From Candidatus Omnitrophota bacterium (lineage in GTDB: Bacteria; Omnitrophota; Gorgyraeia; JAFGHF01): a stretch of DNA of 64,000 nt. The DNA is taken from assembly GCA_020341815.1 (NCBI GenBank), contig CP070837.1, forward strand, positions 892,064-956,063. Direction: 5' to 3'. The notes under the pieces are model-generated. The model saw only the letters and a list, made by a program, of their open reading frames with translations. It was not told where the DNA came from and made no database searches. Below, one piece after another: positions 1 through 42,594 of the stretch (positions within the stretch are counted from its first letter, which is position 1; every line of letters starts with the position of its first letter). The translations under genes were made by a program, and so were the position numbers.

Positions 1-2
1 CC

Positions 3-371
3 TCACCCATACTGGAAAAAATAGGCCTGCGCAATACTGCTCCTTTCATTGCCCTAACTATCAGAAGCTTAAGTGTGAGCGTGGCTCTATTAATAGCATT
101 GACGTGCATGGGTAAAATAAAAGATATCTTCAGTGTCGACGGCAAAACAATGACATTATTTATAGTCAGCGGAATTATGGCGGGACTCTTGGGTATGTGG
201 GCCTATTTTGGCGCGCTAAAGGCGGGTGCCACATCAAAGATAGTGCCCATAGCTGCATCTTACCCCTTAATCACTGCTCTTCTAAGTGTAATCATTCTCA
301 AGGAGGCAGTTACTCCGCTAAGATTAATAGGCACCCTGCTTATTATTGCCGGTATCTGGCTGGTTAAATAA
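3..371 (+). CDS. EamA/DMT-family transporter, C-terminal fragment (5' end lies outside the window)
   Basis: The frame is open from the window start. The hydrophobic C-terminal half carries a typical EamA-domain signature (ASYPLITALLSVIILKE...IIAGIWLV). Confidence 0.6.
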   Translation, partial: SPILEKIGLRNTAPFIALTIRSLSVSVALLIALTCMGKIKDIFSVDGKTMTLFIVSGIMAGLLGMWAYFGALKAGATSKIVPIAASYPLITALLSVIILKEAVTPLRLIGTLLIIAGIWLVK

Positions 372-388
372 TTTTTCATGTTTTTTAC

Positions 389-417
389 TTGACAAACTTT
401 TATCTATATGTTAAAAA
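389..417 (+). promoter_or_regulatory. Sigma70-like promoter upstream of the TIGR04073-like gene (TTGACA, 17 nt spacer, TAAAAA)
   Basis: TTGACA lies at 389-394, with an A/T-rich -10-like hexamer 17 nt downstream. Called by eye only. Confidence 0.35.
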
Positions 418-484
418 ATATAGAAAGGGATAATGTAAGCAATTATTTAAGCTTGCTTGAATGAAAGGGAAAGGGGGTGAAAAG

Positions 485-814
485 ATGCGTAAATTCTTTT
501 TAATTTTGGTAGCTGTCATAATGATTTCTAATTTAATTATAACGCCTTGCTCTGCTGATGATGTCCTGCGCAAGCTGGGAAGAGGCCTGGCAAACACCAC
601 AACAGGTTTCGTAGAGATCCCTAAGAAGGTTTTCCTGATCAGTAAAAATGACAATCCTCTCCTGGGTATGACCTGGGGTTGGGTTAAAGGAGCGGGAGTT
701 GGCCTGCTGCGTACAGCTGCTGGCGTATATGAGACTGTAACTTTTCCTATTCCTGCGCCTGCGAATTATGAACCAATCATACAGCCGGAGTTTGTTTTTG
801 AGGAATGGGACTAA
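485..814 (+). CDS. Small secreted protein resembling the TIGR04073 exosortase-system-associated family
   Basis: Signal peptide (MRKFFLILVAVIMISNLIITPCSA), then KLGRGLANTT...GVYETVTFPIP motifs that I recall from TIGR04073. Start placed at the internal Met after a GGGGTGAAAAG RBS. Confidence 0.55.
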   Translation: MRKFFLILVAVIMISNLIITPCSADDVLRKLGRGLANTTTGFVEIPKKVFLISKNDNPLLGMTWGWVKGAGVGLLRTAAGVYETVTFPIPAPANYEPIIQPEFVFEEWD

Positions 815-832
815 AAATAGTAAAGCGGTCAA

Positions 833-871
833 AAAGGCTCATCTTTATCTAAGAGATGGGCCTTTTAATTT
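833..871 (+). terminator. Rho-independent terminator after the TIGR04073-like gene
   Basis: AGGCTCATCT...AGATGGGCCT stem (one mismatch) followed by TTTTAATTT. Confidence 0.45.
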
Positions 872-910
872 CTGGTAATTTAGGCCGAATATTGCGCAAA
901 AGAAAAAGCT

Positions 911-2209
911 ATGTGGGCACGAAAATATACAAAATGCATAGAATGCGGAACAACAGAAATACCTCACTTTAGTAAAGGGCGCTGCAGAAGATGCTGCCAT
1001 AGGATTAGAGATAATCTGAGGATAGATAGATTAGAAATTAATAAAAGAATCGGCAGAGGTCAAAAGAAAAGATACGCATTGAAAAATAACATCAGAAATC
1101 AAATAACCAAAGATATATTAAGTGATTTATATTGTTATAGAAAAATGTCTTTCGGAGACATAGCAAAGCAATACAACTGCTCAAGAGCGTATATATTAAA
1201 GCTATGTAAATTATATAGTATTCCTATCAGAAATAAGTCCGAAGCAAGATATTTAGCACTAAAACAAGACAAGCTTCCTTTTTGTTACCACAAATTGAAT
1301 GAACAATTCTTTAAGACTTGGACTAAAGAAATGGCATATGTCCTTGGTTTACTTTATGCAGATGGCAATATGCACAAAAACAAGTCAAGCTTTTCTTTAA
1401 GCTTGAAAGAAAAAGATTTTTTAGAGCGGATTAGAAATAGCTTAGAAAGCACACATCCCATAAAGAAGAGCAAAGTCCAGGAACTCTATCATTTAACTAT
1501 CGGAAGCGGCAAAATGATTGAAGATTTGCTGAAATTAGGCTTTATCCCGAGAAAAAGCCTAAAAATCAAGTTCCCAGACATGCCAATTGCCTATATTTCC
1601 CACTTTATAAGAGGGTATTTTGATGGTGACGGAAGTATAATAAAAAAGAATGATAGCAATGTCTATAAGGCCTCTATTGTTACCGGGTCGGAAAAATTCA
1701 TTTCCAGCATAAAAATGCATTTGGAAAGACTTGTGGGTGTAAGCGTACAAAGAATCAATAAACACAAAACAGCAAACGCTTATTTCATTCATTACCACAG
1801 AAGGAGCGATATCGAGAAACTCTATAAATATTTTTATGACGAGTATACAATAAGCAATAAATTATACTTATCTAGGAAACTTTTAAAGTTTCAAGAAGCC
1901 ATTAGCAATTATAAGAAATGGGGCCTTAATCAGCTAAGGTCTTCCAGACACAACGCTAAATATAGCGCTAAGGTAAAACTGGAAAAAAATCAAACAAATG
2001 CCACAATCGAAAAGTTAATCGCCTACTGGTGTTCTTACCGCCAACTTGGCAGCAATATATCTGATTTAGCTAGATATGTCAAAGTCTCAAGGGATACGGC
2101 ATATCGTTGGTTAAACAGGAAAGCTCAGCCTAAGGAGCAAAAATTACAGCTGATTCAAGAATGGTTAAGGCAAAGGCCGAATCATCAACAAACACTTATT
2201 TATAAGTAG
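911..2209 (+). CDS. LAGLIDADG-type (double-motif) homing-endonuclease-like protein with an N-terminal C4 zinc ribbon, an internal HTH and a C-terminal AlpA/Xis-like HTH
   Basis: CxxC-x14-CxxC at the N-terminus. Two LAGLIDADG-like motifs (YVLGLLYADGNM and FIRGYFDGDGSI) about 95 aa apart. The C-terminal VSRDTAYRWLNRK...IQEWL resembles the AlpA/excisionase HTH_17 family. Confidence 0.6.
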   Translation: MWARKYTKCIECGTTEIPHFSKGRCRRCCHRIRDNLRIDRLEINKRIGRGQKKRYALKNNIRNQITKDILSDLYCYRKMSFGDIAKQYNCSRAYILKLCKLYSIPIRNKSEARYLALKQDKLPFCYHKLNEQFFKTWTKEMAYVLGLLYADGNMHKNKSSFSLSLKEKDFLERIRNSLESTHPIKKSKVQELYHLTIGSGKMIEDLLKLGFIPRKSLKIKFPDMPIAYISHFIRGYFDGDGSIIKKNDSNVYKASIVTGSEKFISSIKMHLERLVGVSVQRINKHKTANAYFIHYHRRSDIEKLYKYFYDEYTISNKLYLSRKLLKFQEAISNYKKWGLNQLRSSRHNAKYSAKVKLEKNQTNATIEKLIAYWCSYRQLGSNISDLARYVKVSRDTAYRWLNRKAQPKEQKLQLIQEWLRQRPNHQQTLIYK

Positions 2210-2233
2210 AAAGGGGAGGGTCATCGGCTAAAT

Positions 2234-2449
2234 ATGCCTCAAAATAGCTCAGAATTGGCCATATTTGAACGACTAAGGGAACATTTAGGGTTCTACAAAT
2301 ACGCGGATGTAGAACATCAATCGGTGACTGCTTTAGCCAAATATTGCAGGGTTTCAAGGAGAACTATATATAACTGGTTGAACAGCAAGACAAAGCCAAA
2401 ACAGGCTAAATTGAAGTTGATTAAGGAATGGATAGATAGTCGAATATAG
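2234..2449 (+). CDS. AlpA/Xis-like HTH protein, paralog of the C-terminus of the preceding gene
   Basis: VSRRTIYNWLNSKTKPKQAKLKLIKEWI is about 60% identical to the C-terminal 40 aa of the 432 aa protein. Good RBS (AGGGGAGGG). Confidence 0.6.
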   Translation: MPQNSSELAIFERLREHLGFYKYADVEHQSVTALAKYCRVSRRTIYNWLNSKTKPKQAKLKLIKEWIDSRI

Positions 2450-2459
2450 TATAAGGCTA

Positions 2460-2491
2460 ATAGGGCTAAAAATGGCCCTATTTTTTAATTT
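2460..2491 (+). terminator. Rho-independent terminator ending the short plus-strand gene block
   Basis: ATAGGGC-taaaaatg-GCCCTAT stem followed by TTTTTTAATTT. Confidence 0.5.
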
Positions 2492-2649
2492 CCCCCTATT
2501 TCACAGTCCTATCCATAATATATCTTATGTTAACTTCCCAATATCGGCTAAATAGGCATAACCATAGGAGAAATAGGCAGTTAAGTAATATGTAGGATAT
2601 TCTGTGGATAAACAGTTAAACGGGATATCTTGCCCCAAAAGATAAAAAA

Positions 2650-3010
2650 AGGGCCTCATTTAATTGAGTTTACTTGAACTTACTTTTGGAGGGAAACTTA
2701 CTTCCAATTAACCTTGCTTACTGCTAAAGACCCACTTAATCAGGCTTAACCAAAATTACCGCAAAAGTGTAACTTTTCTCAAGTTAACCTGGCTTACTTT
2801 TGCAAGCCAACTTAACTAAATTTCGTTACACTTACTCAAAGGACCCTATTTTACTTAGTGTTACTTTTTAGGGCTGACTTACTTATCCTTACTCAATGAG
2901 CCACGAATTACCTGTATTTACTTTTTTGAGGAAAGTTACCTGAAGTTACTCGGTGGGTTTGTTTTTACCGGAAGTTACTTGATGGGCCTATTGTTACCTA
3001 GAGTTACCTC
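2650..3010. repeat. Degenerate tandem array of about 25 TTAC(T/C)T / GTTAC(C/T) units (iteron-like) in a convergent intergenic region
   Basis: Direct reading shows GAGTTTACTT, GAACTTACTTTT, GAAACTTACTTCC, AAGTTACCTG, AAGTTACTCGG, AAGTTACTTGATG, GTTACCTAGAGTTACCTC and similar units. No ORF of 60 aa or more on either strand. Confidence 0.65.
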
Positions 3011-3014
3011 TCCC

Positions 3015-3473
3015 CTATCGCAGCGAAAATATCCTTACTCTTTCTGAACCCATATTATCTGAGTAATCGAAATCGCTGACCCAGAGGCGCACCTCTTTTT
3101 CTTGTTTCAAAGTAAAGTCTAAAGTTGCACCCACTTGACCTTCTTTTAAGGCCTGTAAAACCTCGTTTTCGGCATCGGCCTGGGAAGCTACTTTTGGGCT
3201 TGGTTCTACATATAACGTGCCTAAATTAGGCTGGTCTTGTCCGCCCAGGCAATCCGTACCTACGCATAGGCTGTAAAGCCAGCTGTAATTGGGGTGAATG
3301 GGGAAAAATAGCGCCACCGCTCCCCCGGCTGCCTCAGCGCGGTAATTGCCTTTGGGTAAGGTTATGGTTATGCCTTCGGCTTTCTCTGCCGGAACGGTAA
3401 TTGTCTTATCATACGCATAAGCAGCCGTTGAAAGCACAAGATATAACAACAGCGCAAAACTCAAAGTTTTCAT
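3015..3473 (-). CDS. Small secreted hypothetical protein
   Basis: Signal peptide MKTLSFALLLYLVLSTAAYA. RBS AAGGAG. No recognisable family. Confidence 0.6.
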   Translation of the reverse strand: MKTLSFALLLYLVLSTAAYAYDKTITVPAEKAEGITITLPKGNYRAEAAGGAVALFFPIHPNYSWLYSLCVGTDCLGGQDQPNLGTLYVEPSPKVASQADAENEVLQALKEGQVGATLDFTLKQEKEVRLWVSDFDYSDNMGSERVRIFSLR

Positions 3474-3490
3474 CTTTGTTCTCCTTCTTA

Positions 3491-3580
3491 CTCACTGAAA
3501 TCACTGAGATTATTACACTGAAGCCACTGAGACTTTATTCAGTGTTCTCAGTGTTGCTATTCAGTGTTCTCAGTGTCTCT
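3491..3580. repeat. CACTGA-rich hairpin element, copy 1 (second copy at 29101-29188)
   Basis: About 85% identical to the copy at 29101-29188. It contains direct repeats CACTGAGAACACTGAATA and their inverted complements, and overlaps the last 13 codons of the giant gene. Confidence 0.7.
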
Positions 3581-6500
3581 TGATTGATATAGTAAGTCTT
3601 ATCCTCTGTGGTTATTCTCCATACCGGGTAAAATGGTGAAGTGGTAAGCTCAGGTGAATAGACAAGCTCAGCCTTAATTTCAGCGGGCTCTTCTTCACTC
3701 TGGGCCAATACCTTCTCTATGGCTTCCTCTTTGCTAATCTGGATAAACCTTACCGGCTCATCCACCCAGGAGGCCTGTTTAAAGTAGCCCTCTTCCCTAT
3801 CAATGATTATGGCAGCATAGCTTAAGAACTGCCCCTGGAAGAAGTTGTCAAAAGGAACGAGGTAATAGTCCTTGCCTGCCTTATCCAGTCTTTGGACAGG
3901 GATAAAGCTTCTGGCAATAGAGCCCTGGATGCTTTGGGTGAACTTCTCGTCCGTAAGAAGCGAAGGGTCGATTATCTCTTTCCAGTTTATCCGGGAAGTC
4001 GCTTCGTTTTCCGGTTTGAAGATATTTAAGAGGTCTTCCTCTATGGTGTAAGAGATTAGCTCCTGCTCTTCATTAAGATTAACCACCAAGGCCCTGTCTA
4101 AAAGGTGCTTCTTGACAGGGTCGGTACTTTCTCCTGAGAGATAATCAGCTATCCTGACCAGTTCCCGGGTAGATTCATTTATTCGAGGTTCGGCTAAAGA
4201 GACCTCAGCATCACTTGGTTCAGAGGGCGGCTCAGCTACCTGAAGGTATTTGCCCTTATAATCATCTTCGGCCGTAAGAGGCAGTAGCATTGTAGCCTGG
4301 CATTCGCCAGCTGTGAGATAGTTATCCTGGCCTATGCCTTGGCCTTGCGGGTCAGTCAGCCAGAGGCCGTAGACCGTAAAGTTGCTAAGGTCTGAGAGCC
4401 GATGGTAACGGCTATGCGGCTCAAAGGGATAGGGGTTCATATCACAGGCTGCACCGTTTATCACCAGCCAGTGCCCGTATGTTCCGTAGGCAGGCACTGC
4501 AGCTGGCGTGTAGGGCTCTGCTACTAGGTCGGTTTCATCCTGGTAATTGTGCCAATCTTCCTTTGTGACAGGATAGGCTATCCAATGAGTGATGTCTCTT
4601 AGGTATTCCTTGAATTGGTCGGGTTCATACTCCTCAATGCCAAAGTTGTATCCATAGTTAGAACGACCTCCAGCTGGAGCATCACCTTCACCCAAGTTGT
4701 CATAATAATCAAAATGCCCCAAGGCATAGTCTATAGCATGAGGGTCCATTTCATCAAGGGAGGCTTTGTTGTAGGGATGGCCGTATTCATAGATCTCAAG
4801 CTGTGAGGGGGTATCATCTTCAGGACGCATCAGGTCTATAATCATCTGAGCGCTGGCTGCGCCTGATGAGGCAAAGTTATAAGGCTCAGGGAGTAACTCT
4901 TCGGCGTAATACTCAGGCAAGTCTATATGCAGAACCCAGCCTTTAAAGACTGAGATAGAGTCTTCGCCTTCGTTACCTGCTGCGTCTGTAGCAATAACCT
5001 TGACGATATTCCTCTGTCCTTCCCCTTCTATAGTTACGCCGGATGCAGAGAATGTCCCGTCACCCATATTGTCTGCCGATGAGTAATTTGTGTTAGCTCC
5101 TGTTACCTCTATTTCAACAGTTGCAGTATCATCATCTATCGTGCCTGATATGTCTATCAAGACATCATTAACTCCGGAATTATTAGCCGGATTGGTGATG
5201 GTAACCTGAGGTGCGGTCCTGTCAATGGTAAAGGAGACGCTGCCTGAGGAGCTATTGCCGGCCTCATCAGTAGCAGTTAAGGTAATAGTATAGTCTCCTT
5301 CTTCGGTATATGTATAAGTAGGAGGAAGATCATTATCACTGGTAACAACAATCTTATCCCCACTTGAACGGTCATCCTCTACTGTATAAGTTAAGGTAAC
5401 ATCCTGATTGGTCGGAGTAGATACAGGGTCAATACTGATTGTGGGTGGGGCGGTATCCGGTGAGTTCTCTAACTCCACTGTTATGCTCTGCCATGGAGAT
5501 TGATTTCCCGCTGCATCTATTGCCCGGGCTTCAAATGTTAGCGTTGAGCCGGGAGCTAAGGTGTCTGTCTGGACCAGCCCTGCCACAAAAGACCAATTGC
5601 TTATATCTTCTATGGTGACCGACACTCCTGCGTCTTCTCCATTTATCTTCGTCTCTATGGATTCCAATCCTGAATCATCTGTGGCAGTGCCGGAAAAGCT
5701 TAATGAAGTTCCTATTTGAATCTTTGCTCCGTCTTCCGGATAAGTTATAGCAACAACCGGAGGTGCGATATCTACATTGTTTACGGTTATAACGATTGTT
5801 TCCTGATTACTCCTAAGAAGTTCTTTATCGTATGCCCAGCAGGTCAATCGATAGTCTCCTCCTGCCTGGTCATATGTTGGTGTCCAACGAACAACACCTG
5901 CTTCAAACACGGCTCCTATTGGTACATCTACCCCTGCATTTTCCCATCCGTACCATACTTCCTCTCCATCGGGATCGCTGGCGGAAGGCGTAATAACTAA
6001 CTCCTGATTTTCATCTATTGTGCGATTTCCTATAGGATTTAAGATAGGCGCACGATTGACATCATTTACGGTAATCGTTACTTCTTGAGAATCAATAAAA
6101 CTGCCGTCCGAGACTGTAACTGTTACTTTATGCACTCCGGCATCATCGAATGTTGTGACATAGGTTTGCTCAATCATCCATCCAGAATAGCTATAGGTTA
6201 AAATGTCTTCTTCATCGGGGTCGGTAGCAGAAGGCGTAATAGTTATAGTCTGACCCTCAGTTACGGTTATATCGGCTATTTCATTCAGAACCGGCGGATG
6301 ATTATCGGTGAAGATAGCCTTATAATGATATCCCATATCTACCTGGTTTATATCAGGCTGAGCATTTGTACGGGTAGTATAGTTATAATTAAAGCCAAGA
6401 TTAATTGCTGCATCACTTCCTGCATCTACACAGGGTGAATATTTGTCAAGATAATATTGTCCCTGCGGTCCCTCCACAAAAAGCGGGTACATAAAGATGT

Positions 6501-8835
6501 TGCCGTCAGTATAATTACAATTACCATAATTGGCCTCTGTATTATTACAAATATTATTATAAGAAAGAGTGGGGTGGGTATTGGGAGTATAGGCATATAT
6601 CCCCCCGTTATTATTGGTTATGATGTTATTTCTGATGATCGGGCTGAAAGAAGGAGCATCGGCGATACAAACTATTCCTCCTTTACCGCCATTGCCAACA
6701 ATGGTATTATTTTCTATAATCAACTGTCCATCGGCATCAAGACCTCGACAGTAAATTCCTGCATAAGTATTATCTATTAGCAAATTATTGAATAAATTTC
6801 CGTAGGCGTTAATACTGTCAAAACCGCCTTTTTTATTTTCGGAAATTTGACAATCTCTTATCTCAAAATTAATTGAAGGCTTTCCAAAAATATAGATTCC
6901 ATACTCACTATTCTCTCTTACAATACAGTTTTCTATTGTAATTAAACAATTTGAACTACCTTCCACTCTAATGCCATGCCATGCATTTTTGATTATCTTA
7001 CAATCCTTAATAAGCATTGTAGAAGTAAGCTGTTCGTAGACATAGACACCGGACCAGGCACTCTCAGTAATGGTAACACCATCGATCACTACATCGCAGG
7101 CATTATAGAATCCTATTCCACCTTCGATAATGGTTTCGCAGAGCTCGATATTGCGTGTCCAATTAGTTGACTCATATCCGCCTAACAAAATAAATTCCTG
7201 CGGAAAGTGCGGGCTTGTTACATATGTGCCTTGAGCAACACAAATCTTTGTCCCTTTGGTGGTACGCTTCCACAAATCCTTTAAATCTTTGTATGGATTA
7301 TCCTTGCTGCCGTCTGCTTCTACTGAGGCGCTATTGGCATCCACATAAATAATAGGGATTGCCTGTTCCATATCGCTATATGTGCTGTCAATCTCAGATG
7401 TATAATAGGTATGCAGGCGATAGTAATAGACAATGCCTCCTGATTCAGCCACATCATTATCGGTAAACGTAGTAATTGCAGCATCGGATATATCGCTGCC
7501 AAGCTGAACCCAGGAAGCAGGATTTTTCGGAGTTGCAGTGCGATAAATACGGTAGAAACTAAAATCGGGATTGGTTTCCTCATCCCAGTTTAATTCTACG
7601 GAAGCTAAATCCTCTGACCATTTAACTCTTGGCTCATCTAATAACTCTTGGTTGACATTAAAATCATATCCACCATTGTAGGCAGCAATGGAATAAAAAC
7701 TTGTATCGATAAACCTTAACCACCAATCTGCATTAACACCATCCTCAGTCCAGTCTATCCAGCTACCAGTTATACCATTACCATCAGGAACAGTTTGCCA
7801 GAGACCACTTTCTTTAGCCCAAGTAAGGGCAGAATTAAGATATGACTCTTGGCCTATATCAAGCCAACAGAGTGATGCCTGAAAGGAAAACCCGGGAGAC
7901 TTCCTATTTTCCTCTGCGCCGTCATTCCAGACCACAGCCCCATCTTCTTTTTGCAGGGTATTATGTATCCACTCCCCTACCTCTTCTGAATTTACGCCCC
8001 TGCAAGGCAAATCCAGCATCTGAGGAGCATAATTAATCCATTCATGCAATCCGGGGTCTTTGGGTATTCCGTTTTCATCAATCTTTCCGTGCCAGACACC
8101 AAAATCAGAGCTCTCAGGATCATCTATATATAAGTACTCATCAATACCTTCAATTATGCGCTTTGCAGCATAATCGCAGACTTCAGAGAAGTCTGTATCA
8201 CCTTTAATCATTGCCCACTTCTGCGCTGCCTTTAATGCCTGGTAGGCATAGGCATTATCAGAAGCCCAGCGCCAGAAGCGATAAATGCCTGAGGCATCCT
8301 TGCCGCCCCCTAACAATCCGTCATCGTTACCGCCTTTATTTTCGAGTTCCTGGCAAGATATAAGATAGCCCGCACCTTTTTTCATAGAATCATATCTATC
8401 TTCCCTGTAACCCAATTTATAAAAGGCAATCATTACTTCTGCTGTCTGAGTGGGTGACTTAGCCCAATCCACGACTTCAGAGTAGCTATATTGATCGCAC
8501 CAGGCCCCATCGTCTTCTTGTTGAATGCTTATCAAATAATCGGCAGCTAATTGGGCCCTTTCTAAATAGGAAGTATCTTCTAATATATCTGAAGCCATAA
8601 TAAGTCCTAAAATCGCCATGGCATTTTCACGCGGAACTATCCAGGTTGGGCTTCCATAGACGTTATTTATACACCCGTATGCAGAGTCTGCCTGCTCCAT
8701 AAATTGACATTTAAGGATATAATCGGCCTCTGTTTTGACCAACTCTGAATCGGCAAAAGCAATACCGGAGGTGCTTGCCAAGAATAAAACTAAGCAACTC
8801 AACATTATACCTTTTAATAGATTCTTAAGTCTCAT
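3535..8835 (-). CDS. Giant secreted multidomain surface protein (about 1,767 aa): signal peptide, prenyltransferase-like alpha/alpha-toroid repeats, FN3, right-handed parallel beta-helix (PbH1 repeats), cadherin-like/Ig-like repeats and a C-terminal C39-like (Cys->Ser) domain
   Basis: Start placed at the Met of MRLKNLLKG...AFA (8835), which forms an ATGA overlap with the upstream stop. QxxDGxW repeats. FN3 motif (SVELNWDEE...FYRIYR). Many beta-helix turns (NCLITIENCIVRENSEYGIYI, IRDCQISENKKGG, IENNTIVGNGGKGGIV). DPD-rich Ig-like repeats (ITITPSATDPDEEDILTYSY). The C-terminal SSGAASAQMII...GHWLVINGA resembles a peptidase_C39_2 core with Ser in place of Cys. Confidence 0.8.
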   Translation of the reverse strand: MRLKNLLKGIMLSCLVLFLASTSGIAFADSELVKTEADYILKCQFMEQADSAYGCINNVYGSPTWIVPRENAMAILGLIMASDILEDTSYLERAQLAADYLISIQQEDDGAWCDQYSYSEVVDWAKSPTQTAEVMIAFYKLGYREDRYDSMKKGAGYLISCQELENKGGNDDGLLGGGKDASGIYRFWRWASDNAYAYQALKAAQKWAMIKGDTDFSEVCDYAAKRIIEGIDEYLYIDDPESSDFGVWHGKIDENGIPKDPGLHEWINYAPQMLDLPCRGVNSEEVGEWIHNTLQKEDGAVVWNDGAEENRKSPGFSFQASLCWLDIGQESYLNSALTWAKESGLWQTVPDGNGITGSWIDWTEDGVNADWWLRFIDTSFYSIAAYNGGYDFNVNQELLDEPRVKWSEDLASVELNWDEETNPDFSFYRIYRTATPKNPASWVQLGSDISDAAITTFTDNDVAESGGIVYYYRLHTYYTSEIDSTYSDMEQAIPIIYVDANSASVEADGSKDNPYKDLKDLWKRTTKGTKICVAQGTYVTSPHFPQEFILLGGYESTNWTRNIELCETIIEGGIGFYNACDVVIDGVTITESAWSGVYVYEQLTSTMLIKDCKIIKNAWHGIRVEGSSNCLITIENCIVRENSEYGIYIFGKPSINFEIRDCQISENKKGGFDSINAYGNLFNNLLIDNTYAGIYCRGLDADGQLIIENNTIVGNGGKGGIVCIADAPSFSPIIRNNIITNNNGGIYAYTPNTHPTLSYNNICNNTEANYGNCNYTDGNIFMYPLFVEGPQGQYYLDKYSPCVDAGSDAAINLGFNYNYTTRTNAQPDINQVDMGYHYKAIFTDNHPPVLNEIADITVTEGQTITITPSATDPDEEDILTYSYSGWMIEQTYVTTFDDAGVHKVTVTVSDGSFIDSQEVTITVNDVNRAPILNPIGNRTIDENQELVITPSASDPDGEEVWYGWENAGVDVPIGAVFEAGVVRWTPTYDQAGGDYRLTCWAYDKELLRSNQETIVITVNNVDIAPPVVAITYPEDGAKIQIGTSLSFSGTATDDSGLESIETKINGEDAGVSVTIEDISNWSFVAGLVQTDTLAPGSTLTFEARAIDAAGNQSPWQSITVELENSPDTAPPTISIDPVSTPTNQDVTLTYTVEDDRSSGDKIVVTSDNDLPPTYTYTEEGDYTITLTATDEAGNSSSGSVSFTIDRTAPQVTITNPANNSGVNDVLIDISGTIDDDTATVEIEVTGANTNYSSADNMGDGTFSASGVTIEGEGQRNIVKVIATDAAGNEGEDSISVFKGWVLHIDLPEYYAEELLPEPYNFASSGAASAQMIIDLMRPEDDTPSQLEIYEYGHPYNKASLDEMDPHAIDYALGHFDYYDNLGEGDAPAGGRSNYGYNFGIEEYEPDQFKEYLRDITHWIAYPVTKEDWHNYQDETDLVAEPYTPAAVPAYGTYGHWLVINGAACDMNPYPFEPHSRYHRLSDLSNFTVYGLWLTDPQGQGIGQDNYLTAGECQATMLLPLTAEDDYKGKYLQVAEPPSEPSDAEVSLAEPRINESTRELVRIADYLSGESTDPVKKHLLDRALVVNLNEEQELISYTIEEDLLNIFKPENEATSRINWKEIIDPSLLTDEKFTQSIQGSIARSFIPVQRLDKAGKDYYLVPFDNFFQGQFLSYAAIIIDREEGYFKQASWVDEPVRFIQISKEEAIEKVLAQSEEEPAEIKAELVYSPELTTSPFYPVWRITTEDKTYYINQETLRTLNSNTENTE

Positions 8836-9506
8836 TTTTCCTCTCCCATTCCCATTGAAAATGCTTCTTGTGCAATTTTTAACCATCTTTTATCCTTGCT
8901 AATAACGTTAAAATTCTTTAATTCAATATCTGTTGTAATCTCCTCGGCCTCTATAATTTCATTTGGGGTCCTAATGATACAATTGCCTTCGGCCAGAAGG
9001 GTTTTATCTTGATTATTCCATTTTAGTTCATTGCAAGTTAACACTCTTTTATCTTCCGTGGTCAGGGTTGCATTTCCGTAAAGCTCTACACCCTTGCTTA
9101 AGGAATTGACTACAGCTGTGCGGGCGCACGCTGTGGAAACCGCAAGGTTATTTTTATAAAAGGAGATTTTAGGCTTTTCTACTTCCATTACCTTGCCTAC
9201 ATTTATGCGAAAGATCCCGAATTTTGGGCTTTTTGTCTGTAAGCGCTCACCGGATAAGATATAGCTCTTCTCTGCCCTGCTGCTTATTTTTGCATATTCG
9301 GTAAAGCTGAAATTTCCGACATCAAGATTCTCTGCACCGGATGAGGCCCTTGAAGACTGGATGGATTCTAACCCTCTGCGGATAATTACTTCTTTGGACT
9401 TGCTTCTATTTATAATACCAATGCATAAAAGCACAATACCCAAAACAGCAATGGGTAGCACAAATATAGTTATTAGCATTTTCTTGATGTTTTCAGGATT
9501 TGTCAT
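8832..9506 (-). CDS. Membrane-anchored LptC/OstA-like protein, translationally coupled to the giant gene
   Basis: N-terminal TM helix, then a beta-rich domain with LYGNATL / AEGNCII motifs reminiscent of the LptA/LptC OstA fold. Stop TGA overlaps the downstream ATG. Confidence 0.4.
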   Translation of the reverse strand: MTNPENIKKMLITIFVLPIAVLGIVLLCIGIINRSKSKEVIIRRGLESIQSSRASSGAENLDVGNFSFTEYAKISSRAEKSYILSGERLQTKSPKFGIFRINVGKVMEVEKPKISFYKNNLAVSTACARTAVVNSLSKGVELYGNATLTTEDKRVLTCNELKWNNQDKTLLAEGNCIIRTPNEIIEAEEITTDIELKNFNVISKDKRWLKIAQEAFSMGMGEEK

Positions 9507-9531
9507 ATCTTTGTTTGGATTGGCATAGATT

Positions 9532-9582
9532 AATAAAAAGCCACTAAGGGCTCGCCTTTTTCCTCCGCCTAGTGGTTTTTTA
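9532..9582 (-). terminator. Terminator-like hairpin inside the 5' leader of the LptC-like/giant-protein operon (candidate attenuator)
   Basis: AAAAAGCCACTAaGGGC...GCCtAGTGGTTTTTT. There is a U-run on the minus-sense side, and the hairpin sits 20-70 nt upstream of the start codon and downstream of the predicted promoter. Confidence 0.35.
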
Positions 9583-9651
9583 TAAAAGTATGAATAAAGA
9601 CTATCTTGTAGGTCAAGACTTATGCAACTACTTTATAAAGTAATAAAGTAT

Positions 9652-9680
9652 AATATAGCAAAATGCAGGACATCTGTCAA
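9652..9680 (-). promoter_or_regulatory. Sigma70-like promoter (TTGACA, 17 nt spacer, TATATT) for the LptC-like/giant-protein operon
   Basis: Minus-strand TTGACA at 9680-9675 and TATATT at 9657-9652, with exactly 17 nt between them. Confidence 0.5.
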
Positions 9681-9775
9681 GAAAAATTATGAAACAATTT
9701 TTCGCAGACCTCGTGGCGAAGCTTTACGGGTCAAGGATTTTTTTTGACCGTAGAAATGTCCATCGAAAGGCAGTT

Positions 9776-10138
9776 TTAGATGCTTTTTTGGCGGTAATAG
9801 GAATAGACCCGGCCTACATCAAGGGGGTCAATGGTAATGAATTTTATACCAGTTTCATGCAAATTAATGCTTTGACCGGCTCTTTCGATTATTCCATAAG
9901 GCTTGGTCCAGACAACCTCACCCACGCCTCTAATGGCCCTCTGGGGATTGTCCGGAACGGTTATCTCCACTTCCAGTATTGTGCCTGCCTGGAGCTTCTC
10001 GGTTAAACAAACCCCCATTCCCCCGCCTCCGATATTCTGGGGCAGGGTTTCGATCTTTTCTCTATCCCGGCCCTGCACAGCATAGCGCACATTGGCAATA
10101 CCACCAAGCCGATGAAAGACTCTTCTATCTTTAGACAT
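9776..10138 (-). CDS. PilZ-domain protein (c-di-GMP receptor)
   Basis: RRVFHR (RxxxR) and NIGGGGMGV (D/NxSxGG-type) motifs. Confidence 0.8.
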   Translation of the reverse strand: MSKDRRVFHRLGGIANVRYAVQGRDREKIETLPQNIGGGGMGVCLTEKLQAGTILEVEITVPDNPQRAIRGVGEVVWTKPYGIIERAGQSINLHETGIKFITIDPLDVGRVYSYYRQKSI

Positions 10139-10150
10139 AATAACACCTCA

Positions 10151-19554: not shown

Positions 19555-20346
19555 CTATTTTCGCTCTTTTTTAATTATTTTCTCGCTCTTCCTCCCTTCT
19601 AATGCTGCCTCCATCAGGCCTTCCAGGGTTAAATTTTCATTAATCTTATTAATAGAGCGGCAATAAGGCAGCATTAAAGAAGCTCCGCCTCCTGTAGATA
19701 CGACATAAGGGCGCCCTTTTAATCCCTTTTTTAGTTCTTTTAATATCCCCTCTATCATAAAGCTATATCCGTAAACAAGCCCGCTTCTCATGCTGGAAAT
19801 CGTCTGGCGACCTAAAAGCGCCTTGGGGCGGCTTAGCTTTACCTCAGGCAATAAGTCGGCCTTGCCGGTTAAGGCCCTTAAGGAAAGCTCCATTCCGGGA
19901 ACAATCACCCCTCCCAGATAACCTCCTCTTGCCGTTACTACATCAAAGGTAACGGCAGTGCCAAAGTCCACCACAATTACCGGACCCGCATATCTCTTAA
20001 ATGCCGCCGCGGCATTGGCCAGCCTATCCTGACCGACTTCTTTCGGCTTTTTATAAAGATTCTTAATGGGGGCCGGGATATCCTCACCCAAAACCAGAGG
20101 CTTGGTCTTTAGAATAAGAAAAAGGGCCCGTTTAACTATCCTGGTAAGCTTAGGCACCACACTGCAAATGATAACCTCATCTATGGTATCAGCCTTCTGC
20201 TTTGCAAGAAGCTTTCTTAAAAGCTTTGTATAGTACTTAAGATTGGCTGCTTTATTAGTAGCCAGCCTCCAGGTGCGCATAAGCCTCTTTCCTTTAAATA
20301 GGCCCATCTTTATATTGGTGTTGCCGATATCCACTGCCAGAAGCAT
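19555..20346 (-). CDS. coaX: Type III pantothenate kinase
   Basis: MLLAVDIGNTNIKMGLF N-terminus and acetate/sugar-kinase fold motifs. Confidence 0.9.
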   Translation of the reverse strand: MLLAVDIGNTNIKMGLFKGKRLMRTWRLATNKAANLKYYTKLLRKLLAKQKADTIDEVIICSVVPKLTRIVKRALFLILKTKPLVLGEDIPAPIKNLYKKPKEVGQDRLANAAAAFKRYAGPVIVVDFGTAVTFDVVTARGGYLGGVIVPGMELSLRALTGKADLLPEVKLSRPKALLGRQTISSMRSGLVYGYSFMIEGILKELKKGLKGRPYVVSTGGGASLMLPYCRSINKINENLTLEGLMEAALEGRKSEKIIKKERK

Positions 20347-41558: not shown

Positions 41559-42569
41559 TCACTTATTGCTTACCCCTCTTAAAGCCAGACCGCAACCTAC
41601 CGCCAGCGTCGGAGAAACCTCATTCAACTTGGCGCTGTCGATGCCTGTAGAGTTGCCAAGCAATTTCTCCAGAGGATTCCATGTCTTAATCTCTCTGCCT
41701 AACTCGGCTTTAAAGAACTCAAGCAACCCAGGGATTTGAGCCCCTTCGCCGCTAATATAAACTACGCCTACCTGTCTTTCGAATTCACTTTCATAATAAT
41801 CAATAGAAACCCTTATCTCGCGAATTAGATTTGTCAAAAGCGGCTTTATCGTCTCAAAAAGCCCTTTTTCTTTGTTTTCCTCCTGCTGCTGCTGTTGTTG
41901 TAACAGTAGGAAATCTTCCAAGACAGAGAGGTCGCGGCTAAAAAATGGCATCTCTCCCTGAAGGATGCCTATATTCACCAAATCGAATTCCAGATTAATC
42001 AGGGCCGCCACATCCTCTTCTTTTAGCTGTGGGCCATTTACCTGAAAACAGTTTATTAAAGAAAAGATATTTACGTCGATAATATTGGGCTCAAGCCCGG
42101 CCTCGTGAATAAGCTCGACGAACTCCATTATTGCCTGCTTTTTAGCGGCCACCAGGAAAACTTTCATCCTATTGGAAGAACTCGCCACCCGAGGCGTAAG
42201 GATATGGTAATCCAGAACCACCTCTTCCATCTTAAAAGGGATATATTGTTGTGCTTCGTATGCCAGGGCCTGCCCGAGTTCCTCTCGACTCATCTTGGGT
42301 AAATTGATATACCTGACGATAACCGATTCACCCGAAACACCGATATTTACGGGATGAGCGGAAATCCCTTTTTCCTGGGCAATCTTTTTCAATGCCTCAA
42401 GCTTTTCTTCTCTGTTCTGTGGGGATTTAAGCGCAACACTGGCAAAATCAACAAGCTTAGGCCCGCCGGCAGAAGCGGTTAATTTCACCATATTGATTCG
42501 CCGCTTGCCTATATCTAACCCTATAGAAATAGCGGCCTTTCTCTTGAATATCAGATCTATCGCTTTCAA
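41559..42569 (-). CDS. pilM: Type IV pilus assembly protein PilM (actin-like ATPase fold)
   Basis: ISIGLDIGKRRINMVKL start motif and an FtsA/actin-like fold. Confidence 0.85.
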   Translation of the reverse strand: MKAIDLIFKRKAAISIGLDIGKRRINMVKLTASAGGPKLVDFASVALKSPQNREEKLEALKKIAQEKGISAHPVNIGVSGESVIVRYINLPKMSREELGQALAYEAQQYIPFKMEEVVLDYHILTPRVASSSNRMKVFLVAAKKQAIMEFVELIHEAGLEPNIIDVNIFSLINCFQVNGPQLKEEDVAALINLEFDLVNIGILQGEMPFFSRDLSVLEDFLLLQQQQQQEENKEKGLFETIKPLLTNLIREIRVSIDYYESEFERQVGVVYISGEGAQIPGLLEFFKAELGREIKTWNPLEKLLGNSTGIDSAKLNEVSPTLAVGCGLALRGVSNK

Positions 42570-42594
42570 ATTTACTTATCCTTACTTATTTTAG

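Follow-up and report, generated by a model that had tools for sequence, protein, structure and literature searches.

A putative dif locus and replication terminus of Omnitrophota chromosomes, with a linked HTH gene, a LAGLIDADG gene and a helically phased TTAC/TTAA array

Except in a few model groups, little is known of what governs events at the terminus; Tus and RTP each have a narrow taxonomic range, and for most phyla FtsK control of Xer recombination is an assumption without demonstration. The Omnitrophota are uncultivated and often ultra-small. The proteins that bind the accessory arms of tyrosine-recombinase sites are small, cooperative binders that wrap DNA (PMC7498355, PMC3936717, PMC5009727). 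Recombination directionality factors bind to direct repeats that are spaced by one helical turn (PMC7498355), and P2 Cox filaments wrap DNA (PMC3936717, PMC5009727). R1 parC is a plasmid centromere of short phased direct repeats (PMC2241845), and TP228 parH is composed of tetramer boxes in phased direct repeats (PMC3130281). Insertion sequences of the IS1202 subgroup abut XerCD sites (bioRxiv 10.1101/2022.12.17.520857).

The window, as the whole 64-kb stretch of DNA that was analysed is called here, consists of chromosomal housekeeping DNA of an Omnitrophota bacterium. Its flagged genes and TTAC repeats are read here, with moderate confidence, as a replication terminus around a dif site, built in three layers: a resident core of HTH gene and dif, a LAGLIDADG gene and a clade-specific array. 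Because a search of genome contigs with the 432-aa LAGLIDADG protein gave only two loci, most of the comparative loci (designated by L numbers) were drawn from homologues of the HTH and LAGLIDADG proteins.

The dif-like site and the HTH gene ahead of it

The core of the locus and its immediate surroundings comprise the following features:

2234-2449, plus strand: 71-aa paralogous HTH ORF, the recognition helix of which is changed (VSRRTIYNWL instead of VSRDTVYRWL)
2459-2482, plus strand: intrinsic-terminator-like hairpin, predicted to end plus-strand transcription ahead of dif
2508-2535, plus strand: dif-like XerC/D site of 28 bp (CCTATCCATAA / TATATC / TTATGTTAACT), between the 71-aa HTH gene and the array
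2603-2611, plus strand: DnaA-box-like 9-mer (TGTGGATAA), at a conserved distance from dif

The dif-like site consists of two 11-bp arms and a 6-bp centre (11-6-11), and it is identical to E. coli dif, the reference sequence of which was taken from PMC3325230, at 20 of 28 positions, including 10 of 11 in the XerD arm. It is the best match to E. coli dif within the window; the other near-match, at 20272, reaches 19/28 and lies inside coaX. A score of 20/28 was also reached by 12 of 200 shuffles, so that the match is weak and marginal taken alone; the assignment rests on conservation and position. The string ATAA-N6-TTATGTNAA has its sole exact occurrence in the 64-kb window at this site, and the dif core is kept in 15 loci whose HTH proteins share only ~45-77% identity. 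Gene orientation converges on the site, with plus-strand genes for at least 10 kb leftward and minus-strand genes for 61 kb rightward, and the GC skew of the window changes sign there, from positive on the left to negative on the right. Genes also converge at the related loci tested, and the skew is likewise higher on the left than on the right in 7/7 of those tested for it, with the right flank of L016 close to zero. A block equivalent to the terminator hairpin (GGCC...T-run) is also found in related loci. No recombinase was present among the 19 scanned of the window's 56 ORFs of at least 150 aa.

The original prediction had placed the window's sole plus-strand block at a strand switch; the switch point stands, whereas the block also takes in 75-814 and at least 10 kb leftward. 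The dif site and the terminus context had been missed, and they reframe the whole locus.

Other identities were considered for this region and rejected. The perfect DnaA-box-like 9-mer had prompted a replication origin as a candidate, which is at odds with genes that converge and a skew that runs from plus to minus. An iteron-type origin was discarded given the lack of a Rep gene and a gene orientation that is convergent, not divergent, and an IMEX or prophage integrated at dif was set aside when no second dif-like site was found in the window.

In all 14 distinct related loci examined, the gene that immediately precedes dif encodes an XRE-like HTH protein of ~70 aa, and a dif-like site lies 40-640 nt past the HTH stop codon in 14 of 14 distinct HTH loci; synteny between the window and L003 is kept on both flanks. 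This comparison shows, at the sequence level, a resident core that consists of the ~70-aa XRE-type HTH gene and a putative 28-bp dif. The HTH family is small, and its named members come nearly all from Omnitrophota. The HTH model has four helices and no wing, with XRE/Cro-type proteins as its top structural matches. The C-terminal region of the 432-aa protein had been described as an AlpA/excisionase-like HTH; the domain is real (residues ~356-422), whereas AlpA/excisionase identity was rejected for these HTHs, as Pfam HTH_17 reaches 20-23.9 bits against a cut-off of 27 and the predicted XRE/Cro-type fold is not a winged helix. The excisionase model TIGR01764 ('excise') was rejected at 17 bits against a cut-off of 28.8. 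XafT/VC1465 identity was dismissed as well, since NF040522 matches the 71-aa paralogue only, and a score of 17.7 bits against a cut-off of 70 makes this match a lead only.

The 71-aa protein, described earlier as a copy ~60% identical to the C-terminal domain of the 432-aa protein, is a paralogue of it, with an identity of 37% overall and ~59% over a 34-residue core only (hand count). Its orthologues come after the fusion gene in L017 and L018. In related loci, dif is usually flanked by TGTGGA(T/A)AA on the XerD side and by ATCTGACAC, a conserved motif that adjoins the XerC arm, on the other. ATCTGACAC is degenerate or missing in exactly those loci (the window, L016, L017 and L018) that no longer have a stand-alone canonical HTH, through loss or fusion, and it may be the true binding site of the dif-linked HTH, rather than TTAC. 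The recognition helix of the HTH is the same in array-bearing and array-less lineages.

The LAGLIDADG gene at the dif flank

The gene upstream of the 71-aa ORF and its domains are laid out as follows:

911-2209, plus strand: 432-aa LAGLIDADG homing-endonuclease ORF, fused to the resident dif-linked HTH (Pfam, PHROG, AF2/Foldseek)
935-1000, plus strand: zinc-ribbon-like CxxC...CxxC (C9, C12, C25, C28), a Cys pattern found in 10 of 12 aligned homologues
1091-1264, plus strand: N-terminal HTH, residues ~61-118 (model helices 67-76, 81-87 and 92-101)
1298-1915, plus strand: double LAGLIDADG core, residues ~130-335 (evidence including an alignment to 2dch)
1976-2176, plus strand: C-terminal domain, residues 356-422, orthologous to the stand-alone dif-linked HTH of related genomes

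The 432-aa ORF is matched in two stretches by Pfam LAGLIDADG_3 (E=5e-14, 52.7 bits, cut-off 22.5) and over residues 52-333 by PHROG phrog_4645 'endonuclease' (E=5.6e-51). Its AF2 model (pLDDT 89) is matched by Foldseek to I-Tsp061I (E=1e-8, TM 0.67); further top PDB matches include intein endonucleases, I-GzeII, WhiA, I-AniI and I-OnuI, with many meganucleases among them, and the predicted fold is the pseudo-dimeric alpha-beta-beta-alpha-beta-beta-alpha one. The two motifs, YVLGLLYADG at residues 143-152 (with D151) and FIRGYFDGDG at residues 232-241 (with D240), lie ~90 residues apart. D151, G152, D238, G239, D240 and G241 show little or no variation in sets of 12 and 62 homologues; catalytic D240 is invariant, and D151 invariant or nearly so. 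The N-terminal Cys motif has no matching Pfam model, and the N-terminal HTH gives weak Pfam matches to HTH_6, MarR and Sigma70_r4 at residues 64-100; this HTH region is conserved in phage homologues, aligned over residues 63-333. The original prediction of a free-standing, single-chain LAGLIDADG protein with two motifs is borne out by the Pfam match, the AF2/Foldseek result and the motif conservation, and that of a zinc ribbon and an HTH at its N-terminus by the Cys pattern and the model helices. Both Asp residues proved to be retained when the catalytic positions were checked, which argues against the inactivated, purely DNA-binding scaffold that a domesticated endonuclease would be.

The C-terminal domain shares 66% identity with the 70-aa gene of L003, and 61-72% in the identity matrix. 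The fusion junction aligns with the RBS and start codon of the resident HTH gene, where ATG has become CTG in the window and GTG in L018, and the LAGLIDADG-HTH fusion is common to three lineages (the window, L017 and L018, at 62-65% identity). In the window's clade, loss of the stop codon has let the LAGLIDADG reading frame continue across the RBS and start codon of the resident gene, giving rise to the fusion, with a diverged second HTH copy behind it. The locus illustrates how a selfish nuclease can gain a host DNA-binding domain via read-through.

In 7/14 loci, a LAGLIDADG gene borders the HTH gene on its 5' side, behind three different upstream neighbours, and it is absent at the syntenic position in L003, L012, L013, L014 and L019. 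LAGLIDADG genes also occur away from dif, in L015 and L002, and that of L006/L007 aligns in two frames, as decaying selfish genes do. By comparison of these loci, the LAGLIDADG gene, which is of phage type, is shown as a selfish layer at the dif flank, with a presumptive endonuclease activity. A mobile element had been among the possibilities raised earlier; presence and absence at one syntenic position bear this out for the LAGLIDADG part, whereas the array is not part of the module.

The TTAC/TTAA array and its possible role

Past the XerD arm, the array is made up of two parts and a boundary motif:

2660-2841, plus strand: proximal array of five TTA[C/A] triplets, with spacings of 10, 10 and 18, a 38-bp period and a layout shared with L003 and L011
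2851-3010, plus strand: distal array of six TTAC doublets, with spacings of 10 and 18/19 and a 28.5-bp period
3008-3020, plus strand: distal boundary motif CTCTCCCCTATCG, identical in L003

The array that had been noticed in the sequence is genuine: 2660-3010 holds 26 TTA[C/A] motifs on the plus strand against one on the opposite strand, and the motifs fit a lattice of 9.52 bp with R=0.89, compared with a null maximum of 0.65. The window as a whole has eight TTAC-N6-TTAC pairs, where 1.5 are expected, and all but one of the eight lie inside the array. Arrays are carried by six genomes (the window, L003, L011, L012, L013 and L018), always in a single orientation and on the XerD-arm side, 125-220 bp from the dif core. 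All five complete arrays have a best-fit period of 9.46-9.52 bp and run from triplets to doublets on a 9.5-bp lattice with vacant positions; of the TTAC motifs that they contain together, 159 are on one strand and 6 on the opposite one, and their pair distances take lattice values only. The window has 26 sites, and relatives with a complete array have 32-62, over lengths of 350-700 bp. T-runs are in phase with the lattice, and L011 and L013 likewise have a CCTCTCCCC motif where the array ends or close to that point. Array-less L005 and L006 have one TTAC-N6-TTAC doublet each, at +109/+110 from dif, and a search of the array-less loci for an alternative repeat motif found none. Arrays break metagenome assemblies at the terminus.

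The HTH gene, dif and array occur without a LAGLIDADG gene in L003, L011, L012 and L013, and the LAGLIDADG gene occurs without an array in L005, L006, L009, L016 and L020. With four of the six array genomes devoid of a LAGLIDADG gene, the array is not a LAGLIDADG feature, and since most HTH-dif lineages have no array, it is dispensable for dif function. The array is a clade-specific layer, with an anatomy that is shown and a function that is presumptive. A functional link between endonuclease and array, as first proposed, does not survive these counts. A single module that unites the LAGLIDADG protein and its HTH domains with the duplicated HTH and the iterons, be it a domesticated endonuclease for recombination directionality or a partition/replication locus, is scarcely credible: the parts are physically adjacent, the fusion is kept in three lineages and the architecture is WhiA-like (Foldseek rank 5), but the presence/absence pattern contradicts it, array and HTH being found without LAGLIDADG, and LAGLIDADG without the array and also away from dif. 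The invariant catalytic Asp and the two-frame alignment of L006/L007 speak against it too, as does the absence of a Rep gene or partition NTPase nearby.

Non-core identity is 0.380 within arrays and 0.376 between genomes, and this equality points to selection on core and spacing, not on unit copies. It is very improbable that the array has no protein-binding role, as an RNA (a UUAC/GUAA-repeat sponge), curved spacer DNA or a hitch-hiking neutral minisatellite would not. Such an array would fit with the HTH being no more than a candidate binder and with the phasing of T-runs with the lattice, and read-through transcripts of minus-strand genes could cross the convergent intergenic array. However, core (4 nt) and lattice are strictly maintained while units are no more alike within a genome than between genomes, the opposite of what a neutral minisatellite predicts, and genomes with as little as 61-77% identity between their HTH proteins share the triplet-then-doublet layout. 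The RNA version is further opposed by the terminator ahead of dif, by a scan that found no promoter-like site within the array and by an Rfam E-value search of 1-5000 that returned only chance-level miRNA-type matches outside the array.

Further candidate explanations were tried and rejected: recent tandem amplification on the equality of within-array and between-genome identity, a transcribed array on the plus-strand terminator and the promoter scan, and a KOPS-like role of TTACYT on its distribution, as this word is barely skewed outside the array (68 vs 46) and the truly skewed words are of the GAAGAGG type.

The array is best read as DNA wrapped in a protein complex next to dif, with the dif-linked HTH as its possible builder. 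Small DNA-binding proteins would sit head-to-tail along the lattice in groups of three and two, the leading candidate being the dif-linked HTH encoded in cis. As a step of 9.5 bp falls short of one helical repeat of DNA, the sites would spiral round the helix about once per 100 bp, so that the DNA would be wrapped into a compact particle. Such a particle beside dif would have an accessory or architectural part in dimer resolution by Xer/FtsK, much as the accessory arms do at cer/psi or at phage att sites. Binding in threes and twos, DNA wrapping and an accessory role for Xer/FtsK are put forward together, with low confidence, as a tentative mechanism. To our knowledge, the chromosomal dif sites studied so far require no accessory DNA, which counts against an accessory role, and the accessory sequences of cer/psi lie on the XerC side over ~180 bp, which counts against the comparison.

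A polar barrier to replication forks or translocases, a functional analogue of RTP-Ter or Tus-Ter with its binder encoded alongside, is an unlikely alternative to the wrapped complex; a tightly bound, one-directional protein array would halt a fork that has passed dif, so that replication would terminate beside dif. The array is located at the terminus, its sites have a uniform orientation fixed relative to the replichores in six genomes, the rtp gene of B. subtilis adjoins the Ter sites, and forks stall at arrays to which repressors are tightly bound. A single orientation on a single side of dif would make at best half a trap, and the RTP and Tus Pfam families are not listed at E<=1 for the C-terminal domain or the 71-aa paralogue. 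The array is, moreover, missing from most lineages that keep HTH and dif, and the conserved order of triplets and then doublets suggests a defined particle over a simple roadblock.

The array could also be a terminus 'centromere' of parC/parH-like build that anchors the surroundings of dif to the machinery of division or segregation, in a MatP/matS- or ZapT-like role, and this is improbable. Phased direct repeats of short degenerate boxes typify plasmid centromeres, and the neighbourhood of dif is a locus required at the septum. Against these points, no gene for ParA, ParM, TubZ or another partner was found among the called neighbours in eight loci, and the candidate binder is an XRE-type HTH, not a ribbon-helix-helix protein, with no adaptor known.

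Taken as a whole, the locus is possibly a terminus-organising system of Omnitrophota that had gone unrecognised, a proposal that we consider doubtful at present. A phylum-conserved HTH would act at dif; one clade would, in addition, wrap a lattice of 26-62 sites (350-700 bp) as a particle that controls dif events (Xer activation or topological filtering, or arrest of forks or FtsK); and a LAGLIDADG lineage specialised for the flank of dif would, in the window's clade, have captured the HTH as a targeting domain. The phylum-wide dif-linked HTH gene and the phased array of 26-62 sites are cloneable parts with which replication finishing and dimer resolution can be tested.

Comparison with known systems

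The dif-like site shares with E. coli dif (GGTGCGCATAATGTATATTATGTTAAAT) the 11-6-11 layout, an XerC arm with ATAA at its inner end and an XerD arm that is almost perfect (TTATGTTAACT), and with chromosomal dif sites in general a single copy (here within 64 kb) at the switch of gene orientation and GC skew. In contrast to model dif sites, a dedicated small HTH gene always lies ahead of it, and one clade adds the 350-700-bp phased array. We know of no dif flanks with an HTH gene, motifs or array of this type for model dif sites, nor were any described in the literature searched, and the helically phased TTAC/TTAA array beside dif is previously undescribed.

Like cer/psi (PepA/ArgR/ArcA) and the P2 Cox and 186 Apl arms, the array consists of direct repeats spaced by roughly one helical turn and lies beside the core site of a tyrosine recombinase. 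It differs from these accessory arms in having 26-62 sites rather than 3-7, a position on the XerD side, a chromosomal setting and, as candidate binder, a four-helix XRE protein instead of a winged helix. With the plasmid centromeres R1 parC/ParR and TP228 parH/ParG it has in common short degenerate boxes, direct orientation and regular spacing (PMC2241845, PMC3130281), whereas here there is no partition NTPase, the location is a chromosome terminus and the 9.5-bp lattice has vacancies and is several-fold longer. RTP-Ter of B. subtilis and Tus-Ter share the terminus location, oriented sites and, nearby, a gene for a small DNA-binding protein; in contrast, the present locus has no detectable homology to them and gathers tens of sites in one cluster and one orientation, in one clade.

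Elements that target Xer sites (IMEX phages and the IS1202 subgroup) resemble the LAGLIDADG gene in the repeated presence of a selfish element beside dif, while here no second dif copy flanks the insert and there is no transposase. Free-standing or phage LAGLIDADG homing endonucleases (I-Tsp061I fold; PHROG 4645 endonucleases of Staphylococcus, Brevibacillus and Alicyclobacillus phages) share the two motifs, the catalytic Asp and the fold, and the phage homologues the N-terminal HTH as well; presence/absence polymorphism at a fixed site and an apparently decaying copy in L006/L007 add to the likeness. Unlike in these endonucleases, the home of the gene is an intergenic slot by a chromosomal dif, not an intron, intein or phage gene, and the protein has an N-terminal zinc ribbon and, in the window's clade, a captured host HTH as its C-terminal domain. 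As far as could be found, it would be the first homing-endonuclease gene to have the flank of a chromosomal dif as its home.

WhiA has the same domain order, and full-length 3hyi is the rank-5 structural match of the 432-aa model. Membership of the WhiA family was rejected, with Pfam LAGLIDADG_WhiA at 22.5 against a cut-off of 23.2 and no match to HTH_WhiA. WhiA has lost its catalytic Asp, whereas the protein described here retains it and has gained its HTH by a recent read-through fusion.

The dif-like site and its resident HTH gene

The window comes from a Candidatus Omnitrophota MAG, from a complete contig of 1.55 Mb (NCBI locus tag JSV30_04755), and the housekeeping genes encoded in the window include those for IleRS, ArgRS, Mfd, GroEL, PBP2, and pilus/secretion ATPases. 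Near the left end, gene strands converge, with all genes on the plus strand to the left and all on the minus strand over 61 kb to the right, and the GC skew flips from positive to negative at the same point; together these are the signature of a replication terminus, not an origin. The features found at this point are on the plus strand, as originally described, but the plus-strand block is not limited to them, since it extends over 75..814 and through at least 10 kb more to the left, read on a Logan contig with the same genes.

Features at the convergence point (window coordinates)
911..2209, plus strand: LAGLIDADG–HTH fusion ORF, 432 aa; Pfam LAGLIDADG_3, E=5e-14, two stretches
2234..2449, plus strand: 71-aa HTH ORF, a paralogue of the C-terminal domain of the fusion
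2508-2535: dif-like site, CCTATCCATAA-TATATC-TTATGTTAACT, with the 11-6-11 architecture of dif
2660-3010, plus strand: array of 26 TTA[C/A] motifs, with one on the other strand

The dif-like site emerged as a conserved block when the DNA downstream of the small HTH gene was aligned among six related loci. It matches E. coli dif (sequence taken from PMC3325230) at 20/28 positions, including 10/11 in the XerD arm, and no other stretch of the window matches better; the same score is reached by 12 of 200 shuffles, so that the match alone is only marginally better than chance. The weight therefore lies on other evidence: 2508-2535 is the window's sole exact match to the dif core pattern, it sits where gene orientation and skew switch, and it is conserved in 15 loci of diverged genomes, at the convergence point wherever the flank suffices. 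In all seven related loci tested, the left flank has the higher GC skew (the right flank of one, L016, is close to zero). The assignment of 2508-2535 as the dif-like site of a terminus locus is well supported by these sequence comparisons. A second candidate at 20272-20299, GGTGCGCATAAGCCTCTTTCCTTTAAAT, matches the E. coli XerC arm at 11/11 positions and dif at 19/28 overall, but was rejected, as it lies inside a type III pantothenate kinase gene and the match is almost certainly due to chance.

The last gene before the site encodes an HTH protein of approximately 70 aa. A profile of this protein recovers 147 clusters, nearly all of about 70 aa and, where named, almost all from Omnitrophota; an exhaustive search returned only 36 representatives at E<=1e-10. 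The dif-like site follows the HTH gene in 14 of 14 distinct readable loci (the window and related metagenomic loci L003, L005, L006, L008, L009, L011–L014, and L017–L020; L004 is a duplicate of L003, and L007 of L006), and the gap is 40–115 nt in 13 of them, the exception being L014, in which a RelB/YafQ module intervenes. Synteny between the window and L003 extends to either side of the locus, and the HTH–dif arrangement is therefore resident in the chromosome, not part of an island. L003 (CAZEQA010000044.1) is labelled "uncultured Planctomycetia bacterium"; this bin label looks wrong, since the locus is gene-for-gene syntenic with the Omnitrophota window at 65–80% protein identity. The HTH proteins had been called AlpA-like, an identity that is rejected, as HTH_17 and TIGR01764 both score under their cut-offs and the predicted model is a four-helix XRE/Cro fold.

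Two short motifs flank the site. The first, ATCTGACAC, adjoins the XerC arm in 11 of 15 loci (L003 1634-1642 and equivalents). It is degenerate in the three loci with the endonuclease–HTH fusion (the window, where 2497-2505 reads ATTTCACAG, L017, and L018) and absent from L016, which carries no HTH gene, a weak hint that ATCTGACAC, rather than TTAC, may be the cognate site of the dif-linked HTH protein. The second is a perfect or near-perfect DnaA-box, TGTGGA(T/A)AA, found in 9 of 15 loci on the XerD side, +76 to +110 from dif. The window carries a perfect DnaA-box-like 9-mer, TGTGGATAA (alternative form TGTGGAAAA), at 2603-2611; the 9-mer occurs in two copies 11 bp apart in L008, L014, and L020, and once, followed by a near-copy, in L019. 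Four copies are found in the window against 0.4 expected.

Window positions 3015-9775 encode a secreted protein of 152 aa that matches no Pfam family, a surface protein of 1783 aa with beta-helix, PKD, and Big domains, and an LptC-like protein, and synteny resumes at the PilZ gene (9775-10144). Short CACTGAG / TTCAGTGTTCTCAGTGT repeats lie at 3489-3579, with the 152-aa gene on one side and the stop codon of the 1783-aa gene on the other, a stretch in which Rfam yields only chance-level miRNA-type matches. Accessory cassettes gather to the left of the dif-linked HTH gene or between it and dif (L011 3535-5020, L012 1164-3241, L013 2904-4966, L014 5267-5802, and L017 3-1813); they comprise PhdYeFM/PIN, YhaV, and RelB/YafQ toxin–antitoxin pairs, and LexA with a small ORF and a DinB-type polymerase, and the terminus flank looks like an insertion hot spot. 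Across 3100-64000, a sample of the right replichore, the minus strand has 26 copies of GAAGAGG and the plus strand none, and for AGAAGAGG the counts are 12 and 0; the skew may reflect a KOPS/SRS-like polar motif or the purine bias of coding strands.

A homing-endonuclease gene inserted beside the HTH gene

The 432-aa ORF is a genuine double-motif LAGLIDADG protein, as originally predicted, with the motifs YVLGLLYADG (D151) and FIRGYFDGDG (D240). Both acidic residues show little or no variation across 12 and 62 aligned homologues, and the N-terminal CxxC...CxxC is kept in 10 of 12. The nearest solved sequence is 2dch, an I-Tsp061I-type enzyme, with which both motifs align. The fold is likewise borne out, as the AlphaFold model (pLDDT 89, from 62 sequences) finds LAGLIDADG enzymes as its best PDB matches, with full-length WhiA at rank 5. 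The family is large (1764 hits); residues 52-333 match PHROG 4645 "endonuclease" at E=5.6e-51, and residues 63-333 share 28–30% identity with endonucleases of Staphylococcus, Brevibacillus, and Alicyclobacillus phages.

Relative to L003, the LAGLIDADG part is an insertion in the window. In 7 of 14 loci, the gene immediately precedes the HTH gene, and three different genes are found ahead of it, one for a small secreted protein in the window, dinB in L017, and one for a signal peptidase in L020; the same genes adjoin the HTH gene directly in the endonuclease-free relatives (L003, L012/L013, and L014/L019, respectively). In L016, the LAGLIDADG gene is followed by dif 47 nt further on and the HTH gene is absent, and L015 and L002 carry LAGLIDADG relatives at other genome positions. 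The gene upstream of HTH at L006 834-1578 (L007 1154-1898) aligns in two reading frames and is probably a frameshifted, decaying copy. This pattern of presence and absence points to a homing-endonuclease gene whose home would be the 5′ edge of the HTH–dif block; we infer both the endonuclease activity of the protein and its target site.

The fusion itself can be read from the junctions. The LAGLIDADG and HTH ORFs adjoin with zero spacer in L005, and in the window, L017, and L018 the endonuclease ORF reads across the RBS and start codon of the resident gene, where CTG or GTG replaces ATG; the C-terminal domain is therefore the host's own dif-linked HTH, and it is 61–72% identical to the L003 HTH protein. 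The gene after the fusion (71–80 aa) is a diverged paralogue with a changed recognition helix, kept in all three fusion lineages. It had been described as a copy about 60% identical to the C-terminal HTH; the paralogy stands, but the identity is 37% overall and reaches about 59%, by hand count, only over a 34-residue core.

The phased TTAC array

The repeats noted originally are real and confined almost entirely to one strand, but far more regular than the "degenerate units" first described. The array is present in the window, L003, L011, L012, L013, and L018, and is absent from L005–L009, L014, L016, L019, and L020. LAGLIDADG is absent from four of the six array loci, which contradicts the original proposal that endonuclease, HTH genes, and repeats form a single functional module and leaves that idea with very little credence. 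All compared relatives are metagenomic, and several of their contigs stop within the array; the comparison covers five complete arrays and a partial one (L018, cut by the contig end). Contig breaks fall inside the array in L018 (2496 bp), about 30 nt past dif in L017 (3564 bp), and about 140 nt past the array in L004 (1270 bp), and many family matches are on contigs of less than 3 kb; metagenome assemblies of the terminus are probably broken up by the array.

The array always lies on the XerD-arm side of dif, starts 125–220 bp away, and has TTAC on the HTH-coding strand; the five complete arrays together have 159 TTAC there and 6 on the opposite strand. That the array is a polar barrier to replication forks or translocases is a reading we consider unlikely. 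TTAC–TTAC distances in the five complete arrays are confined to 10, 18/19, 28/29, 38/39, 46–48, 56–58 bp, and so on, and the best-fit lattice is 9.46–9.52 bp, with R of 0.71–0.95 against a null maximum of 0.65. A common occupancy plan is seen in the window, L003, and L011, in which triplets (XXX.) next to dif are followed by doublets (XX.), with five triplets and six doublets in the window and six and twelve in L003; the same analysis did not resolve a pattern in the L012 and L013 arrays. In four of the five arrays, the end coincides with or lies close to CCTCTCCCC, and the distal boundary in the window (3008-3016) reads GGGGAGAGG on the minus strand, towards dif.

Away from the TTAC cores, the similarity of units is no higher within a genome (0.380) than between genomes (0.376), which rejects a young minisatellite and marks the array as an old structure in which selection keeps a 4–6-nt core and its spacing, as expected for a protein-binding lattice; a role that does not involve protein binding is accordingly given little chance. 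The array-less L005 and L006 each carry a single TTAC-N6-TTAC doublet at +109/+110 from dif, which may represent the seed of an array. The only such doublet outside the array in the window, at 42572-42585 (TTACTTATCCTTAC, identical to array unit 2879-2892), immediately precedes a PilM-like gene (41559..42569, minus strand), where it overlaps the probable ribosome-binding site; a single pair of this kind is expected by chance.

Possible role of the array and comparison with known systems

Taken together, the region is well supported as a dif/terminus locus with a resident HTH gene, a homing-endonuclease gene that was inserted and became fused to it, and a phased array restricted to one clade. 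The binder of the array and its action we infer: the sole locus-linked candidate binder is the HTH protein, whose recognition helix is identical with and without arrays, and which may recognise ATCTGACAC instead. On 10.5-bp DNA, a 9.5-bp lattice would rotate by about −34 degrees per site, and the sites would therefore complete one turn in about 100 bp; if proteins on successive sites touched one another, the DNA would be driven into a tight superhelix. Tethering of the terminus by an array that resembles a plasmid centromere (PMC2241845, PMC3130281) is a further reading, judged improbable.

Both the dif site and the endonuclease belong to known types. The literature searched, in a search that was incomplete and does not prove novelty, held no description of a small HTH gene that keeps its place beside dif throughout a phylum, of a dif-side homing-endonuclease lineage that captured this HTH, or of a 350–700-bp array on a 9.5-bp lattice adjoining dif. 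The reading to which we tentatively commit is that the array, wrapped into an accessory complex, would aid or filter Xer recombination at dif, because the HTH gene is tied to dif phylum-wide and because small proteins bound to direct repeats one turn apart are the mode in which accessory factors of tyrosine recombinases act (PMC7498355, PMC3936717, PMC5009727).
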